From: Escherichia phage BEBK14
Strand: one strand, 5' to 3'
Length of the DNA: 50,853 nt
Sequence record: MN158214.1
The notes under the pieces were generated by a model. The model had not been told where the DNA came from. It did not search any database and worked only from the letters and a program-made list of their open reading frames with translations. The translations under genes and the position numbers were made by a program. Below, in pieces: positions 42-40,320 of the stretch (its first letter is position 1; each line of letters begins with the position of its first letter).

Positions 42-118
42 TTTTAGATCCTCTTTATTCAAATGTCAATAGTGATGATTGCATTTTAAACATTGTGCTG
101 AAAAAATAAATAAAAAAA

Positions 119-141
119 GGAGGCTTGTAAATTAAGCCTCC
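119..141 (-). terminator. rho-independent terminator candidate
   Basis: hairpin GGAGGCTT/AAGCCTCC with A-run 100..118 on plus (T-run on minus). Confidence 0.5.
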
Positions 142-164
142 TTATAAGTTAATGTTTTATATGG

Positions 165-335
165 TTATTCTGCTGGTGAAAAAGTCAGGTAATAGCCGTG
201 TAATGGTGCGATTATTGCACTGCCTTGCCCGTCGCGGATCTCATACATGCCGCCAGGAATTGCTACAGCCGTGTAAATCAGGCCGACGGTATAAGGCAAT
301 TGCTTAGATGTGTTTCTGGTGCAACGTACTTTCAT
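165..335 (-). CDS. hypothetical small protein (56 aa)
   Basis: minus-strand ORF starting right after stop of 336..1454; followed by hairpin terminator 119..141. Confidence 0.3.
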   Translation of the reverse strand: MKVRCTRNTSKQLPYTVGLIYTAVAIPGGMYEIRDGQGSAIIAPLHGYYLTFSPAE

Positions 336-1454
336 TTATTTCTCTGCCATCTCAGGATAAAACATAAATCTTCCGATTTCGCCGTGTTCTTTGTCGTAAA
401 TGATAACCGCAGCACGGCGACGGGAACGCCAACCGCCTCGCGCGGCGTATGCGTCTTTAGCTGCCATCGTGCTATGTACTTCAACAATGCCGAGCGATGT
501 TTCTGTTACAGTCTGATGATGAAAATGCCCTACGTGCGCATACATCGTTTTTGAGTTGCCGAAGTCCTCCCGCCAGTCTGCCGCGCACATCATTAGCAAT
601 GTTTCCGGCTTGCGGACGGTGTGACCGTGATGATATGCAAGGAAGGTTTTTCCGTACTGCGTATGGTGAACCACTCGCGGCGATACATCAACGTAAACGC
701 GCGGCTCTTTTTCATATGCCGCCGCCATAGCTGCACGTAACCAGATCATGCCGCTTTGGTCATGGTTTCCCTCAATTATCTGGATCTCTACTTCTTTGTG
801 TTTTTTGAGCATCAACTCAATGGCACGACGGACGGCGCGGATTGCCACGTAAACCAATTTTGCGTATCGGCTATCTTGATCCAGGACGTGACCGCTTGCA
901 GGCGTTACTGCTTCCAGGCCGTCACTATGAAGCATGTCACCCCCAATCAGTAGCACAGCTTTCTCGCTGAACGGTGCACAGGCCACAGCATAATCGAAAA
1001 AGTCATTCATTACTTTCTCAGCCGTGGAAGTATCCCAATTCTCGCCGCATTCGTGTTTGTGCGCCATAGCTCCCAGGTGCATATCAAAAACGGGGTAAAG
1101 GGCAAGGCTTTCGCTGTATTCGCTCGCTTCTTCCGGTGTCGGATCTACTCGCGGCAATTCTTCGGTAAAAGCGTCCATAGCTGCACGCATCAACGCTTCC
1201 AGTTGCTCTTTGTCCTTACTGGTCTTTGTCCATTTGACGATCACGTTACCTTCTTTGTCGGTCATGACCGATTCACCGTGAACACCAAAACCAGGAGTTC
1301 CGATGGTTGATATTTTACCCTGTTTTGCCAGTCGTGCCGCTCGGCGCTCGACGCTACGAACGTTAAGGCCGTATTCCTCAGCAATCTGACGATAGCTCTT
1401 ACCCTTTAATCGCTCATGCGTGAATTGCTCGTCCGTTATCTTGCTCTGACTCAT
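336..1454 (-). CDS. HTH domain + calcineurin-like metallophosphoesterase
   Basis: N-terminal HTH-like segment (SYRQIAEEYGLNVRSVERR); metallophosphatase-like motifs GDMLHSDG, GNHD, HHGH in translation. Confidence 0.55.
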   Translation of the reverse strand: MSQSKITDEQFTHERLKGKSYRQIAEEYGLNVRSVERRAARLAKQGKISTIGTPGFGVHGESVMTDKEGNVIVKWTKTSKDKEQLEALMRAAMDAFTEELPRVDPTPEEASEYSESLALYPVFDMHLGAMAHKHECGENWDTSTAEKVMNDFFDYAVACAPFSEKAVLLIGGDMLHSDGLEAVTPASGHVLDQDSRYAKLVYVAIRAVRRAIELMLKKHKEVEIQIIEGNHDQSGMIWLRAAMAAAYEKEPRVYVDVSPRVVHHTQYGKTFLAYHHGHTVRKPETLLMMCAADWREDFGNSKTMYAHVGHFHHQTVTETSLGIVEVHSTMAAKDAYAARGGWRSRRRAAVIIYDKEHGEIGRFMFYPEMAEK

Positions 1455-1554
1455 GATTTTTTCTCCTATTGGTGCATTACGATACTATATATGATAGCGG
1501 TCGCAATGATAACGGGTAACGGTAGAACAAACAAGCGCCACATGATAACCATCC

Positions 1555-1966: not shown

Positions 1967-2025
1967 TTTCATTTCCTCATGTTCGTTTCGATGAAATAAT
2001 TATGCCCGACAAAATGCCGGGCGTT

Positions 2026-2303: not shown

Positions 2304-3005
2304 TTAACTCCGCTTTCTTGCCCGACGCTCTGCCACGGAAGGGCAAATGTCGCTGATTTTAACGTATCGCGTTTTCTGATGCTCGCCTTCTTTCAGTTCA
2401 CGCATGATGAAAATAACGCTTCCTTTGTTGTTGCCCTGTACTGGTTTACCTGTAAGTGCGGAAGTAAACGCCAGGCGTCCGGTGCGTGAATATTCTGTTC
2501 CATCCTCTTTGTAAACTTCTCCAGTGATCCAGATTATTTCCGCCGCGTGCTGTTGCGCTTCATAAAACCATCCTGTTGATGTGTCGCATGGTAAAAGCAT
2601 GTCGATCTGGTTGTTGTGCTCCATCTGCTCAATCGCTTTCTTAACGAATGGCGTGATGTTGCTGTATGGTGGATTAAGCCAGATGTGCTTATTGCTACCC
2701 CACCAACGCTTTAAGCAATTCGTTTCCTTGCTGTAGAATTTTTCGCATACAGCATTATCTTCGCTTGCTGCCGCGTCGATGTCATAATCACCATATTCGC
2801 TTTCCATCCATGCGACAAGCTCTGATGGCGTAGACCATAAATCGCGCACAACGTCCGGCGTATTGCTTCCGTTATATCGGTTGCCAGTCACTTTGAAATA
2901 TTGATTTGACTTAACTGCCTGGTAATGGCCTCCGGTCGCTAGGGCATTACCTACAAACGTTTCTCGTTCGATTTGTTCAAAGCTGATTTCAATTTCTTTC
3001 TTCAC
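2304..3005 (-). CDS. dam: DNA N6-adenine methyltransferase (phage Dam family)
   Basis: NPPY catalytic motif (WLNPPYSN) and overall resemblance to phage Dam-type MTases; apparent GTG start. Confidence 0.7.
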   Translation of the reverse strand: MKKEIEISFEQIERETFVGNALATGGHYQAVKSNQYFKVTGNRYNGSNTPDVVRDLWSTPSELVAWMESEYGDYDIDAAASEDNAVCEKFYSKETNCLKRWWGSNKHIWLNPPYSNITPFVKKAIEQMEHNNQIDMLLPCDTSTGWFYEAQQHAAEIIWITGEVYKEDGTEYSRTGRLAFTSALTGKPVQGNNKGSVIFIMRELKEGEHQKTRYVKISDICPSVAERRARKRS

Positions 3006-3064: not shown

Positions 3065-3081
3065 TTAACAAAAAATGCTAT
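3065..3081 (-). promoter_or_regulatory. 17-bp box copy
   Basis: CATAAT at 3039..3044, 22 bp downstream; box contains TAG stop of 3078..3497. Confidence 0.5.
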
Positions 3082-3497
3082 TTCAGCATGTAATCAACTG
3101 CGATCATGAATTGCTTGTAACCGTAGGTGACGGCAGCGAAGCCTCCAAGCTCACGCACGCGGCGCAAGAATGCTTTTTGCTCTTTGCTGACCGGAGAAGC
3201 CTTCCCCTTGCCGGACTTGTTGACGCGCTTCATTTCAATAGCCGCAAACGGGTAGCGGCCTTTTAATCCAATCAGGATGATGAAGTCACTCACACCCTTA
3301 ACGAGTCCGGCTTGCTGATCCATCATTGCAGTGGCGATTCCCTTGTCTCCTTCGTTTTTCGTATGCCAGGCCAGCAATTCAGGATGAGCATAAGTCACCC
3401 ATTGAAACGCACCTATCTGGTGCGATTCTTCTTTTAGTGTATCTGTTGGATCTCTTTCGTAAAACTCCAGATAGTCACCTTTATCAGTCATTGCCAT
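3078..3497 (-). CDS. VRR-NUC domain nuclease
   Basis: C-terminal segment resembling VRR-NUC (GKGKASPVSKEQKAFL...); immediately downstream of helicase as is typical. Confidence 0.5.
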   Translation of the reverse strand: MAMTDKGDYLEFYERDPTDTLKEESHQIGAFQWVTYAHPELLAWHTKNEGDKGIATAMMDQQAGLVKGVSDFIILIGLKGRYPFAAIEMKRVNKSGKGKASPVSKEQKAFLRRVRELGGFAAVTYGYKQFMIAVDYMLK

Positions 3498-5523
3498 AAT
3501 TAAACTCCTTCTTGTATAGATTATCTTCGCCCTTACTCGTCTTGCGGTGAGTTACCATCGACGGCTGCATGATGTGATTCGCATATTGCATGATTTTTCT
3601 TGCATTGCGATAGCTTGCCACCATGCCAGCAATACGGCGATCCGGTATATGCTTTAACGCGACTCTACGCCATTTATCCCTGCAAATCTGGCTTTCTGAT
3701 TCAGGGAAAAATATCTCTCGCGCCCTGAATGTGTCGATGCCGTCGGAAAGCTCATAATTGAAGATGATCCCTTTCTGATTTTTCGTCATGTCAACCGAGA
3801 AAGATTTTACCTGGAACCAGTCGTTTTTTGTGTAGTGCTTACCGCTTAACTTTTCGTTAGGGTCAATAAGCGACACATCGCAATGCCTGCACACCCTGGC
3901 CGCAATATCATTCTTAGTACCACAGCCGTGATGGATAACCTTTCTGGTGCGCTGGTCTATCCGATCCTCGCATATCTTGTATTTGAAAAACCATTCGCAT
4001 CTGTTTCCGTTTTCGTCTACGTGCATACAACGTCGAGCGTAATAGCTGTTTAACGTCTTGCATACAGGGCAAGGCTTCGGATCTTTTCCGTTTTTGAATC
4101 TCTTCTGATGCTGCGCCTGCTCCAGTATCGGATCGAAATAAAGCTCTCCTAACTCGTCCATCGTGCCGGAAAAGTCCAAAACAAGATGATCGTCTTTATG
4201 AAAGCCCTGCTCTTTGTGCCACTTTTTAAGCAGTCGCATACCGCGACCTAAAAGCTGAATCAACAAAGTTAGCGATCCAATCTTACGCAGAATAACTGAC
4301 GTATCCCAAAACGGCACGTTAACGCCAGTGGTTAGCGCCTGCACCTGGAAGATGTATTTTACTTTCCCCTCGTATGCTTCTTTCAGCCATTCTTTACGCT
4401 GATTGTCGCCAGTCTTGCCAGTGATGATCCGGTAAGTCGTGCCAGGAGGCAACGCTGCCGCCGCCTCTTTACAATGTCTTTCACCTGCACATGTCACCAA
4501 TACGCCGTTACGGTTTTTACATATTTCGTGCACCTTCTCCATGATGCGCTTAGTCATAGTGGCTTCTTCATGGATCTTCTGTTCCATTTTGCGAAGCGTT
4601 TTCGCGTCAAAATCTGCAACTCCGTCCTCGCTGGATGCCTCGAACTCTGACAGGTCATAACCGAGATCGCCAACGTCGCCAAAATTGGTTGGCACAACCG
4701 AACCGAATTTGATCAGATAGTTGGTATCTATGTTAGTAACCTGTTCTCGCCAAAATCCTTTCTGTTTTTTATCTTCAACCAGGATTGGAACCACGCCGCG
4801 AAATTCCGATCCAGTCATGCCAAATATACGCAATTCGTGACCGTATTCCTTCCTGCAACGACGCATCATTTCCATGATGATAACGGTGTACTGTGTCCTG
4901 CCTGTTCCTTCCATTGGCAAGCCATCTTCCCCAATCAGGAATTCATCACACTCATGGGCGTTCGTGATGTCGTAATCTGGATTCTTTACTTTCTCGCCCT
5001 TTTTTGTCGTCATTTGAATGAGCGATTCGTCATTCTCTATCGCGTCGGCAAGGTCTTCCCAATCCACCTGATGACACTCGTCAATCCCGATAACGTGCGG
5101 CGCGTAGTCTCCAAGTGACTTAAACAGGCCGTTAACTACAGTTCCCTCAGAACCAACAACAATAGGAAAGTATGCGCTTTTGGTTTTCAGTCCAGCACAA
5201 TAAATGGAATTTGGCACGCCGAGATTTGTGATCTCCTCTGAATCCTGATCCACAATTTCAGCCTGTCGCGCCAATACCATCATTTTCAAGCCCATTTTCC
5301 GGCATTGCGCCGCAACCATTGCAAACATCAATGTTTTGCCTGCTGATACTGATGCTTTAATAAAGAATGGATGCTGATAATTGCGCATACGCTTTGCGAT
5401 CTCAGTGTATGCAACAACCTGGTAAGGATATGGCACAATATCGCCAACCGTGAAACGCTCCTGTATTTTTCGGATCGTTTCTTCACCTAAAGCGGCTATC
5501 TGCTTTTCAATATTAGGAATCAT
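3484..5523 (-). CDS. SF2 DNA helicase with Zn-finger-like cysteine cluster
   Basis: Walker A (SVSAGKT), DECH box (GIDECHQ), C-terminal CxxC clusters. Confidence 0.75.
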   Translation of the reverse strand: MIPNIEKQIAALGEETIRKIQERFTVGDIVPYPYQVVAYTEIAKRMRNYQHPFFIKASVSAGKTLMFAMVAAQCRKMGLKMMVLARQAEIVDQDSEEITNLGVPNSIYCAGLKTKSAYFPIVVGSEGTVVNGLFKSLGDYAPHVIGIDECHQVDWEDLADAIENDESLIQMTTKKGEKVKNPDYDITNAHECDEFLIGEDGLPMEGTGRTQYTVIIMEMMRRCRKEYGHELRIFGMTGSEFRGVVPILVEDKKQKGFWREQVTNIDTNYLIKFGSVVPTNFGDVGDLGYDLSEFEASSEDGVADFDAKTLRKMEQKIHEEATMTKRIMEKVHEICKNRNGVLVTCAGERHCKEAAAALPPGTTYRIITGKTGDNQRKEWLKEAYEGKVKYIFQVQALTTGVNVPFWDTSVILRKIGSLTLLIQLLGRGMRLLKKWHKEQGFHKDDHLVLDFSGTMDELGELYFDPILEQAQHQKRFKNGKDPKPCPVCKTLNSYYARRCMHVDENGNRCEWFFKYKICEDRIDQRTRKVIHHGCGTKNDIAARVCRHCDVSLIDPNEKLSGKHYTKNDWFQVKSFSVDMTKNQKGIIFNYELSDGIDTFRAREIFFPESESQICRDKWRRVALKHIPDRRIAGMVASYRNARKIMQYANHIMQPSMVTHRKTSKGEDNLYKKEFNYGND

Positions 5524-38178: not shown

Positions 38179-38195
38179 TTAGCAATTCGTGCTAT
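38179..38195 (-). promoter_or_regulatory. 17-bp box copy (variant CGAATTGCTAA)
   Basis: contains TAG stop of kinase gene; TATAAT at 38152..38157, 21 bp downstream. Confidence 0.5.
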
Positions 38196-38782
38196 TTGAT
38201 TTTTGTGAAATACCACTGCACGGTTTCGATGATTTCCTCTACCGTCTTTTCTGGCTCGCCATCGTGCAATGTGAAATCGTAATGCTTGAGGCGGTGATGA
38301 TAGTCGCCCATGTCGATATAGTTTCGCGAGTCGCCATCGAACGTGTACCCCTCGCGATGCAGTCGGCAAATGTGCACTTTGTGACCTGCTTTAATCAGTG
38401 GCTTGATTTCTTCTGGAAAGCCGCCGTCTGTTACGATAATTGCAAGGTCGCGGTACATTTCGTGAATCTGCTCAACCATTCTCCAGCCGAAATACTGTTC
38501 CCCAAATGCTGGCTTCATTACCTCCTCGCTAATCCAGATCATGAACTGGCGCGGTGATTTTCCCTGCAATATCACCTGAGGCTTTTCTTTCTGTTCCCGG
38601 TCGTTGTACAAGTCCATAAATTCATCGTATCTGTACACACCAAGCATGGAGAACGCAATATCGAACATTGGCTGTTTGAATGATGCCTTAACTGCTGGGT
38701 ATCGGTGTCCGGTAAGGTATGCCGCAATGGTGTCCTTTCCCACTCCAGGTGGCCCATTCAGGATAATGATGTCTCTTTTCAT
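38192..38782 (-). CDS. P-loop kinase (polynucleotide/nucleotide kinase-like)
   Basis: Walker A GPPGVGKDT near N-terminus, 196 aa; stop TAG lies inside box copy. Confidence 0.55.
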   Translation of the reverse strand: MKRDIIILNGPPGVGKDTIAAYLTGHRYPAVKASFKQPMFDIAFSMLGVYRYDEFMDLYNDREQKEKPQVILQGKSPRQFMIWISEEVMKPAFGEQYFGWRMVEQIHEMYRDLAIIVTDGGFPEEIKPLIKAGHKVHICRLHREGYTFDGDSRNYIDMGDYHHRLKHYDFTLHDGEPEKTVEEIIETVQWYFTKIK

Positions 38783-39780: not shown

Positions 39781-40320
39781 TCATTTTAAACACTCCACGC
39801 CGTGAGATTGCAGGTGAGCGTGTGGCTTGTCGTATTCCGTGACCTGATAGGTTGTGATCCCCAGGCTTCGGAAGTGCTTAACCACATTCGGAGAATCGTC
39901 AAAGGCGCAAACAATGTTGCCCAATCCAATAGCGCGCAAGGCTTCTTCTTTAATAACCGTATCCTTTCGGTTGTCCTCCTGGCGGCGCATGATGATTTCG
40001 TCAAACTTCACGCCGTTCTCATTCAACCATTTGCAGGTTTCATAGCGAACCTCGTCGCTGCGTCCGGTAAGAATAACGACGGCAAAGCCAGATACCCACA
40101 AACCATTGATAACAGCAATCGTGCTCTTAATCGGTGAATCTCCGGCGGCTGCCCTGTTAAATTCGCTCCACGATTCCGTAAGGTGCAAGTTTTCGGTTGG
40201 CAGCAAGTGCAAACGATGCGATCCGTCCGATAGCGTGCCATCCAGATCAACGATAACAATAGGCTTGCTGGTAATTAATTCGTATTTCTTTCCCCATAGT
40301 TCGAAAGTGTATTTTTTCAT
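39781..40320 (-). CDS. HAD-superfamily phosphatase (polynucleotide 3'-phosphatase-like)
   Basis: DxDGT motif (VIVDLDGTLSDG) near N-terminus and downstream HAD-like motifs. Confidence 0.55.
   Translation of the reverse strand: MKKYTFELWGKKYELITSKPIVIVDLDGTLSDGSHRLHLLPTENLHLTESWSEFNRAAAGDSPIKSTIAVINGLWVSGFAVVILTGRSDEVRYETCKWLNENGVKFDEIIMRRQEDNRKDTVIKEEALRAIGLGNIVCAFDDSPNVVKHFRSLGITTYQVTEYDKPHAHLQSHGVECLK

Follow-up and report, generated by a model that had tools for sequence, protein, structure and literature searches.

The 50,853-base stretch of DNA analyzed here, called the window below (Escherichia phage BEBK14, sequence record MN158214.1), is the near-complete genome of a T1-like coliphage belonging to Warwickvirus (Tempevirinae, Drexlerviridae); over the first 3 kb, it matches Escherichia phage WaterSpirit, also a Warwickvirus, at 99.8% identity. 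Near the start of the window, with the lysis cassette at the opposite end, lies an open reading frame (ORF) whose product is predicted to join a helix-turn-helix (HTH) domain to a calcineurin-like metallophosphoesterase (MPE); we refer to it as the HTH-MPE gene. An original prediction, made from the sequence alone, had described it as a fusion of an HTH domain with a calcineurin-like metallophosphatase. This call was correct, as the intact motifs, the predicted fold and a three-helix N-terminus all agree with it, and its coordinates were exact; the strand, which it had left unstated, is the minus strand. The protein is 100% identical to that of phage BabyEgg and 57% identical to T1 ST16. We found that HTH-MPE is a core gene of Drexlerviridae under strong purifying conservation, and that its product keeps a complete MPE active site. 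The features of the gene and its surroundings are shown in Table 1.

Table 1. Features of the HTH-MPE gene, its product and its surroundings. Positions are those of the window, except where a locus of another phage (L number) is given.
Feature	Position	Strand	Basis or remark
HTH-MPE ORF	336-1454	-	complete, 372 aa, ATG start; PHROG 704
Three-helix HTH, residues 8-44, sigma-70 region 4 / LuxR-GerE type (predicted)	1323-1433	-	AlphaFold2, sub-threshold Pfam
Family-specific beta-hairpin and helix, residues 55-100	1155-1292	-	AlphaFold2, alignment
Calcineurin-like MPE core, residues about 105-372	339-1142	-	
Motif I, FD124-M-H126-LG; D124-x-H126 metal ligands	1077-1085	-	read from sequence and alignment
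Motif II, GGD173MLH176; bridging Asp, GDxxH as in Mre11 and PdeM	927-944	-	
Family-specific conserved loop, residues 179-191, consensus VTPxSGHxLD	882-920	-	alignment and AlphaFold2
Motif III, GN230H231D232	759-770	-	read from sequence and alignment
Motif IV, H275-H276-G-H278	621-632	-	read from sequence and alignment
Motif V/VI, G-H310-F-H312-H313	516-530	-	read from sequence and alignment
Second family-specific segment, residues 330-343, KDAYAARGGWRS	426-467	-	very strong conservation
Helicase gene	3484-5523	-	first in minus-strand order toward the HTH-MPE gene
VRR-NUC nuclease gene	3078-3497	-	after the helicase gene
Dam-type methyltransferase gene	2304-3005	-	followed by three small ORFs
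Terminator-like hairpin	2004-2022	-	between the small ORFs and the promoter-like site
Promoter-like site, TTATCA-17-TATAGT	1484-1512	-	upstream of the HTH-MPE ORF; consensus match only
56-aa ORF, standalone SH3-clan protein (DUF7244)	165-335	-	Pfam E 8.5e-28
Intrinsic terminator-like hairpin, 10-bp stem and T run	117-143	-	closes the HTH-MPE transcription unit before the holin gene
HNH gene downstream of HTH-MPE, T1 ST15	L010 8207-8689		
HNH gene downstream of HTH-MPE, Jerseyvirus gp22	L012 7171-7671		
HNH gene downstream of HTH-MPE, mEp515	L017 6070-6624		
HNH gene downstream of HTH-MPE, Vibrio phage 95E33-2	L106 5028-5537		

The ordered signature motifs of the MPE superfamily, DxH, GDxx(D/H), GNH(D/E), H and GHxH, are all present in the protein. 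An exhaustive phmmer search retrieved 4630 cluster representatives at E <= 1e-3, 1048 of them at E <= 1e-30, and conservation was measured in an alignment of the query with the 150 best cluster representatives (50% identity clusters; n = 151). In this alignment, H126 and D173 were found in all 151 sequences, D124, N230, H231, H276 and H312 in 150 and H310 in 143; across these positions, which comprise seven metal ligands and the catalytic His231, the counts thus range from 143 to 151 of 151. With such conservation across divergent sequences, the motif set goes far beyond chance. The GDxxH and GNHD motifs and the histidine clusters pointed out in the original prediction were also verified at the nucleotide level, and their metal and catalytic residues are near-universal across the 151 sequences.

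Structure prediction, which had been proposed as a check on the domain call, returned the metallophosphatase fold with confidence. Two AlphaFold2 models were obtained (pLDDT 76.6 with 27 sequences and 85.7 with 76 sequences), and the MPE part forms a classical four-layer alpha/beta sandwich at residues 114-365. When the better model was compared with the PDB by Foldseek, the first seven matches were all archaeal Mre11 proteins (E 1.6e-7 to 1.2e-6), and the nearest solved folds were those of Mre11, SbcD and PolD-DP1. The suggested search with the Pfam Metallophos model (PF00149) turned out negative for the single protein, which scored 13.2 bits against a cutoff of 21.5 (E 0.12); among 36 relatives, 9-10 matched, only at E < 0.01. 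The gathering score is missed because the family is too divergent for this model, and membership of the MPE superfamily therefore rests on the motifs and the fold. Similarly, searches of Pfam, NCBIfam and PDB sequences with the HTH-MPE protein alone gave only sub-threshold matches and no PDB chain, so that the case for the domains rests on family-level evidence.

The core contains two further segments that are specific to the family, the VTPxSGHxLD loop, in which T184 is present in 151 of 151 sequences, and the segment at residues 330-343. Many Arg and Lys residues are invariant in these loops. Both segments were modelled at low confidence in the better model (residues 180-188 below pLDDT 50, block 331-340 at 68), and no counterpart of either could be assigned in Mre11. 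They are candidate substrate-binding or oligomerisation loops.

For the N-terminus, AlphaFold2 predicted helices at residues 8-16, 21-28 and 32-44, with a block pLDDT of 86-93 over residues 11-40. The Pfam match to Sigma70_r4_2 (E 7e-5) reached 22.8 bits and thus stayed below its gathering score of 25.7. When the family profile was compared with the PDB, the HTHs of sigma-H region 4, GerE, RhlR and DesR appeared at non-significant E values (0.15-2.2), and the sole significant match for this part was a designed HTH-repeat protein (E 1e-6). Individual relatives match many different HTH Pfam families, and an iterated hidden Markov model of the N-terminal segment recovered 108 of the 151 sequences, the median N-terminal extension being 141 aa. 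Supported by the models and by the sub-threshold Pfam matches, the predicted HTH is considered probably real, but weak at the sequence level. It is followed by the hairpin (strands at residues 56-65 and 71-80) and the helix (82-97) predicted by AlphaFold2; S62 and W75 are invariant in the alignment. This hairpin-helix segment also aligns to F365_147, an HTH-less protein of a Campylobacter phage. The 317-aa relative in Campylobacter phage F365 keeps the hairpin-helix and the MPE core without the HTH (hhalign probability 100%, E 1e-44) and, judged by its sequence, is a true family member; its gene adjoins those for DNA ligase and a Holliday-junction resolvase.

The motifs bear on one of the functions put forward in the original prediction, the regulation of host phosphosignalling. 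According to this view, HTH-MPE would be a Ser/Thr/Tyr protein phosphatase that rewires host signalling in the manner of lambda NinI, a phage-encoded Ser/Thr phosphatase of the PPP family. The two proteins belong to the same superfamily, and in prophages HTH-MPE genes occupy a similar nin-like region in which NinG, RusA and Q are found as neighbours. However, the PPP signatures GDxxDRG and GNHE are absent from HTH-MPE, which has GGDMLHSDG (the GGDMLH of motif II, with no Arg-Gly after it) and GNHD instead. HTH-MPE is also larger than NinI and carries an HTH, a conserved putative DNA-binding domain that would not be expected in a protein phosphatase, and no PPP phosphatase was present among its structural fold matches. 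A protein phosphatase thus appears far-fetched, whereas the other function proposed originally, a nuclease-like factor of replication or recombination, is the better match to the evidence.

Among the known nucleases of the superfamily, Mre11 has the same GDxxH form of motif II as HTH-MPE, and its archaeal members ranked first by Foldseek; SbcD, known from S. aureus and E. coli, is likewise among the nearest folds. Sequence similarity to Mre11 or SbcD was not detected among PDB sequences. Mre11 and SbcD have a C-terminal capping domain, which HTH-MPE lacks, as its last strands lie at residues 348-365 and the chain ends at 372; unlike them, it has the N-terminal HTH, hairpin and helix and the loops VTPxSGHxLD and KDAYAARGGW. 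No Rad50/SbcC-like partner was found among the neighbours in the window, nor in 80 proteobacterial prophage loci examined by clustering and, for about half of them, by a census of Pfam families among the neighbours. A second comparison is offered by PdeM or 'Nuclease MPE', a ligase-associated, Mn2+-dependent single-stranded DNA (ssDNA) endonuclease (PDB 6nvo and 6nvp), which has LGDFLH and GNHD in common with the family motifs. It was the only MPE match of the family profile in PDB sequences, a weak one (E 0.39), and its NCBIfam model TIGR04123 gave 15.9 bits, far below the cutoff of 150. PdeM differs in its length (about 215 aa) and in having no HTH, and a parallel to its ligase association is seen in the HTH-less family member beside DNA ligase in Campylobacter phages.

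The HTH-MPE family has already been catalogued. The profile of PHROG 704 matched residues 4-370 over its positions 2-389 of 390 (E 2.8e-148); the label of this profile, 'DNA repair exonuclease', is an automated guess only. By tblastn, family members were identified in 2039 of 50,697 phage records, which included all branches of Drexlerviridae, Dhillonvirus-like phages, Jerseyvirus and Kagunavirus (both at 40-46% identity), Vibrio phages, Rhodobacter phage RcPutin and Campylobacter Fletchervirus, and further members occur in proteobacterial prophages. In 508 of 522 Drexlerviridae, the gene is reported to be persistent beside the lysis cassette (PMC13164509). A DNA-binding phosphoesterase had been called unusual in the original prediction, which overstated the case: the fusion is the normal architecture of this widespread family and does not represent a new kind of system. 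The labels in the source records vary and include 'putative phosphoesterase', 'metallophosphoesterase', 'winged helix-turn-helix domain-containing protein', 'DNA polymerase II small subunit' and 'serine/threonine protein phosphatase'. Some host labels also deserve attention. At the DNA level, about 20 records named 'Campylobacter phage A1xx' (MG0656xx, 47-50 kb) share 80-85% identity with the present T1-like coliphage, and a protein of 'Streptococcus phage MBBL140' is 80% identical to the HTH-MPE protein; these labels look like misassignments or contaminating coliphages.

In the window, the HTH-MPE gene is preceded on its own strand by genes for a helicase, a VRR-NUC nuclease and a Dam-type methyltransferase (Table 1), and in Drexlerviridae it is the last gene of this block. 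The ATG of the 56-aa ORF comes directly after the TAA stop of the HTH-MPE gene. The product of this small ORF is 53% identical to T1 ST14, and a 2026 paper named it a standalone SH3 protein and proposed that it belongs to the lysis module of Drexlerviridae (PMC13164509). Past the hairpin that closes the transcription unit, the minus-strand order is holin, endolysin and spanin. A perfect hairpin with a 10-bp stem (AAGGAGGCTT / AAGCCTCCTT) and A and T runs on its flanks was noted within positions 40-143; as read from the sequence, it could terminate transcription in both directions. On the minus strand past this hairpin, a -35 box of consensus sequence (TTGACA) is located just before the holin gene, paired with a poor -10 box.

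With such a location, HTH-MPE might be a transcription regulator, for example, an activator of late or lysis genes at the 'Q position' upstream of the lysis cassette, whose MPE part serves as a sensor or accessory enzyme. The resemblance of the HTH to sigma-70 region 4 and LuxR would agree with this, as would the place of the gene immediately upstream of holin, endolysin and spanin in the Drexlerviridae counted above, its closeness to lysis genes in distant prophages, where lysozyme is the commonest neighbour family, and the terminator and promoter-like site between it and the holin gene. On the other hand, the universally conserved part of the family consists of the catalytic residues and not of the HTH, which true members can lack. 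Q antiterminators coexist with HTH-MPE in some prophages, and no convincing repeated operator-like motif was found near the HTH-MPE gene or the lysis promoter. We consider a regulatory function quite improbable.

The position of the gene varies considerably among more distant relatives. A 67%-identical copy lies inside the replication module of E. coli lambdoid prophages and mEp phages, where the order is cI, cro, a Lin1244_N initiator-like protein, an ANT protein, HTH-MPE, DnaB and, later, NinB. In one metagenomic phage contig, HTH-MPE follows PolA and precedes a MazG-like gene and lysis genes, and in Vibrio phage 1.007.O the genes before it encode endolysin, membrane proteins and SSB. Jerseyvirus carries it in an oppositely oriented cassette within the tail module, and several metagenomic contigs carry it after lysis genes, or between tape-measure or tail-fibre genes and the tail-tip gene. 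In about half of the 80 prophage loci, the commonest Pfam families among the neighbours were phage lysozyme, integrase, trypsin-like peptidase, deoxynucleoside monophosphate (dNMP) kinase and DUF1937, followed by methyltransferases and Q; NinG, RusA and a MazG-like protein were each seen once. These neighbours place the prophage copies of HTH-MPE between the replication and lysis genes. In four distant loci, the start of the HTH-MPE gene is overlapped by other ORFs, which proved mutually unrelated.

Two side observations concern the genes that accompany it. First, the ANT/Bro-type protein encoded upstream in E. coli lambdoid prophages (locus L002, 7254-7967) is 39% identical (E 3.5e-48) to the 'DNA-binding protein' gp20 of Jerseyvirus (locus L012, 8023-8694), which is encoded in the same cassette as HTH-MPE; the pair may move jointly as parts of a mosaic module. 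Second, an HNH/homing endonuclease gene was found immediately downstream of HTH-MPE in at least four unrelated phage lineages (Table 1), with none in this window; in T1, it stands between the MPE gene and the SH3 gene. Homing endonucleases typically settle next to highly conserved genes, and the pattern suggests that such insertion has happened repeatedly here. The HTH-MPE gene itself was also considered as a homing endonuclease, given its HTH, its putative nuclease part and its variable position, and this reading was ruled out, as the gene is persistent and syntenic in Drexlerviridae and tracks the phylogeny of the phages.

The replication contexts raise a further alternative, in which HTH-MPE would be an accessory subunit of the replisome or a proofreading 3'-5' exonuclease, comparable to PolD DP1 and the polymerase B-subunits and acting at the phage fork in partnership with the helicase or host polymerase, or else an origin-specific nicking initiator. 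Relatives carry the label 'DNA polymerase II small subunit' in databases, and the gene adjoins DnaB in E. coli prophages and PolA in the contig mentioned above. Nevertheless, most members are not beside replication genes, and the resemblance to DP1 is no stronger than that to other MPEs. In contrast with archaeal DP1 and the eukaryotic B-subunits, HTH-MPE has no OB domain, no DP2-binding region and no partner catalytic subunit, and it keeps the catalytic residues that the eukaryotic B-subunits have lost. A role of this kind is decidedly unlikely.

Genes of nucleotide metabolism form another recurrent context. In many other Drexlerviridae, dNMP kinase and polynucleotide kinase (PNK) genes come directly after the HTH-MPE gene (PMC13164509, PMC8004638). 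In the window, they were found on the minus strand at 38192-38782 and 39781-40320, far from HTH-MPE. The presence of these genes beside HTH-MPE in many relatives, and elsewhere in this genome, fits DNA breakdown for nucleotide salvage. The same neighbours, together with MazG-like pyrophosphohydrolases, could also point to a phosphodiesterase or phosphatase for small nucleotides (cyclic nucleotides, dinucleoside polyphosphates, or 2',3'-cyclic or 3'-phosphate ends). Such an enzyme would act in nucleotide metabolism or destroy host immune signals, its HTH serving for autoregulation or localisation only, and the genome position of the gene varies as that of an accessory gene would. However, a predicted DNA-binding domain is kept across most of the family, motif II is of the nuclease type GDxxH with Mre11 ranked first by Foldseek, and the family-specific loops hold many invariant Arg and Lys residues. 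The gene is also a persistent core gene of Drexlerviridae rather than a sporadic accessory one. A search of four family members with PADLOC gave no defence or anti-defence matches, so that such a role was rejected. Taken as a whole, a small-molecule enzyme seems fairly unlikely.

Based on these observations, the reading that we favour, with a probability of about 50%, is that HTH-MPE is an Mn2+-dependent DNA phosphodiesterase or nuclease, tethered to its substrate by the HTH and used for breakdown of host DNA with nucleotide salvage, or for recombination and replication. We infer DNA as the substrate because the predicted DNA-binding domain is conserved, because the GDxxH form of motif II is common to Mre11 and the ssDNA endonuclease PdeM, because Mre11, SbcD and DP1 are the nearest solved folds, and because the gene occurs in contexts with DnaB, PolA, SSB, or DNA ligase and a Holliday-junction resolvase. 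The protein would be a two-metal phosphodiesterase, the metal probably being Mn2+, with an Mre11/SbcD-like core and a DNA-binding module of its own, and with neither a capping domain nor a Rad50/SbcC partner. The predicted HTH would bring the enzyme to DNA, and the active site formed by D124, H126, D173, N230, H231, H276, H310 and H312 would cut phosphodiester bonds of DNA, either exo- or endonucleolytically. In the phage cycle, it may act at the end of the programme of replication and DNA metabolism. Its most likely jobs would be the breakdown of host or unpackaged DNA, which would feed the phage dNMP kinase, and/or the processing of DNA ends or structures for recombination-dependent replication.

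Several observations weigh against this proposal. No conserved partner gene was found: the 1345 ORFs of the 80 prophage loci fell into 1090 clusters, each present in at most 16 loci. Because the phage has a RecE-like exonuclease, Erf and SSB of its own, the resection of ends for recombination may not be the chief task of HTH-MPE. In two metagenomic contigs (L006, 7001-8170, and L014, 6001-7191), HTH-MPE is co-oriented with tail genes and embedded among them, between a tape-measure or tail-fibre gene and a protein of about 540 aa that is followed by a tail-tip protein. In addition, the homologue gp38 of Pantoea phage AAS23 was detected by mass spectrometry in a virion preparation (PMC8004638). 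The siting among tail genes and the detection in virions raise a possible virion association, which a replication nuclease would leave unexplained. A search of the literature found no experimental study of any family member, and profile comparison with T4 gp47 gave a probability of only 4% (hhalign), with no significant similarity; comparison with T5 A1, treated below, gave a weak local match only. It should be noted that a homologue is also among the phage proteins that the vB_EcoS-EE09 study, a comparison of infected and non-infected hosts, tabulated as identified by proteomics.

Phage enzymes of this superfamily that degrade host DNA are known. T4 gp46/47, which is SbcCD-like, acts in recombination and host-DNA degradation, and in T5 the predicted metallophosphatase A1, whose partner is the DNA-binding protein A2, is both required for the degradation of host DNA and sufficient for it. 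By analogy, both offer precedents for an MPE nuclease acting on host DNA. Orthology with T4 gp47 was considered and rejected; the 'recombination endonuclease' of Campylobacter phage belongs to the HTH-MPE family and is unrelated to gp47. As for T5 A1, both it and HTH-MPE are divergent phage MPEs that fall below the curated Pfam thresholds, both show the C-terminal pattern HGH...GHxH...DxxY...W...I-x-Y, and both are found beside MazG-like, helicase and polymerase genes in other phages. A1 differs in its length of 556 aa, its large unrelated N-terminal region and a motif II of the form H-D-V-x-D instead of GDxxH. In the hhalign comparison of an A1-family profile (PHROG 1745; 8 phage sequences) with the HTH-MPE profile (76 sequences), the match had a probability of 18.5% (E 1.3e-3) and covered 66 columns of the C-terminal motifs only. 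No cross-match between the two families was present in PHROG, and T5 A2 gave no match to the HTH model of HTH-MPE (E 0.014 in a search of only 14 sequences). The likeness to T5 A1 and A2, a DNA-binding part combined with a divergent MPE, is thus treated as an analogy, and specific homology is not established.

A more specific version of the nuclease reading can nevertheless be formulated. HTH-MPE might be the long-unidentified host-takeover nuclease of T1-like phages, a single-chain functional counterpart of T5 A1 plus A2. It would break down the chromosome of the host, its HTH serving to discriminate or target DNA, and the released dNMPs would pass to the phage dNMP kinase. As a complete scenario, this is unlikely. 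If it is true, thousands of siphophages and prophages would carry a new class of Mre11-like nucleases that are self-targeting and independent of Rad50.

Although the fusion would not surprise a specialist, HTH-MPE is worth biochemical study because it is an uncharacterised core gene of T1-like phages. A tested substrate would replace the automated 'DNA repair exonuclease' label in thousands of phage genomes. Knowledge of the substrate would also test whether T1-type phages degrade host DNA with a Rad50-independent Mre11-like enzyme, and it could explain the stable linkage of the HTH-MPE gene to the lysis cassette.

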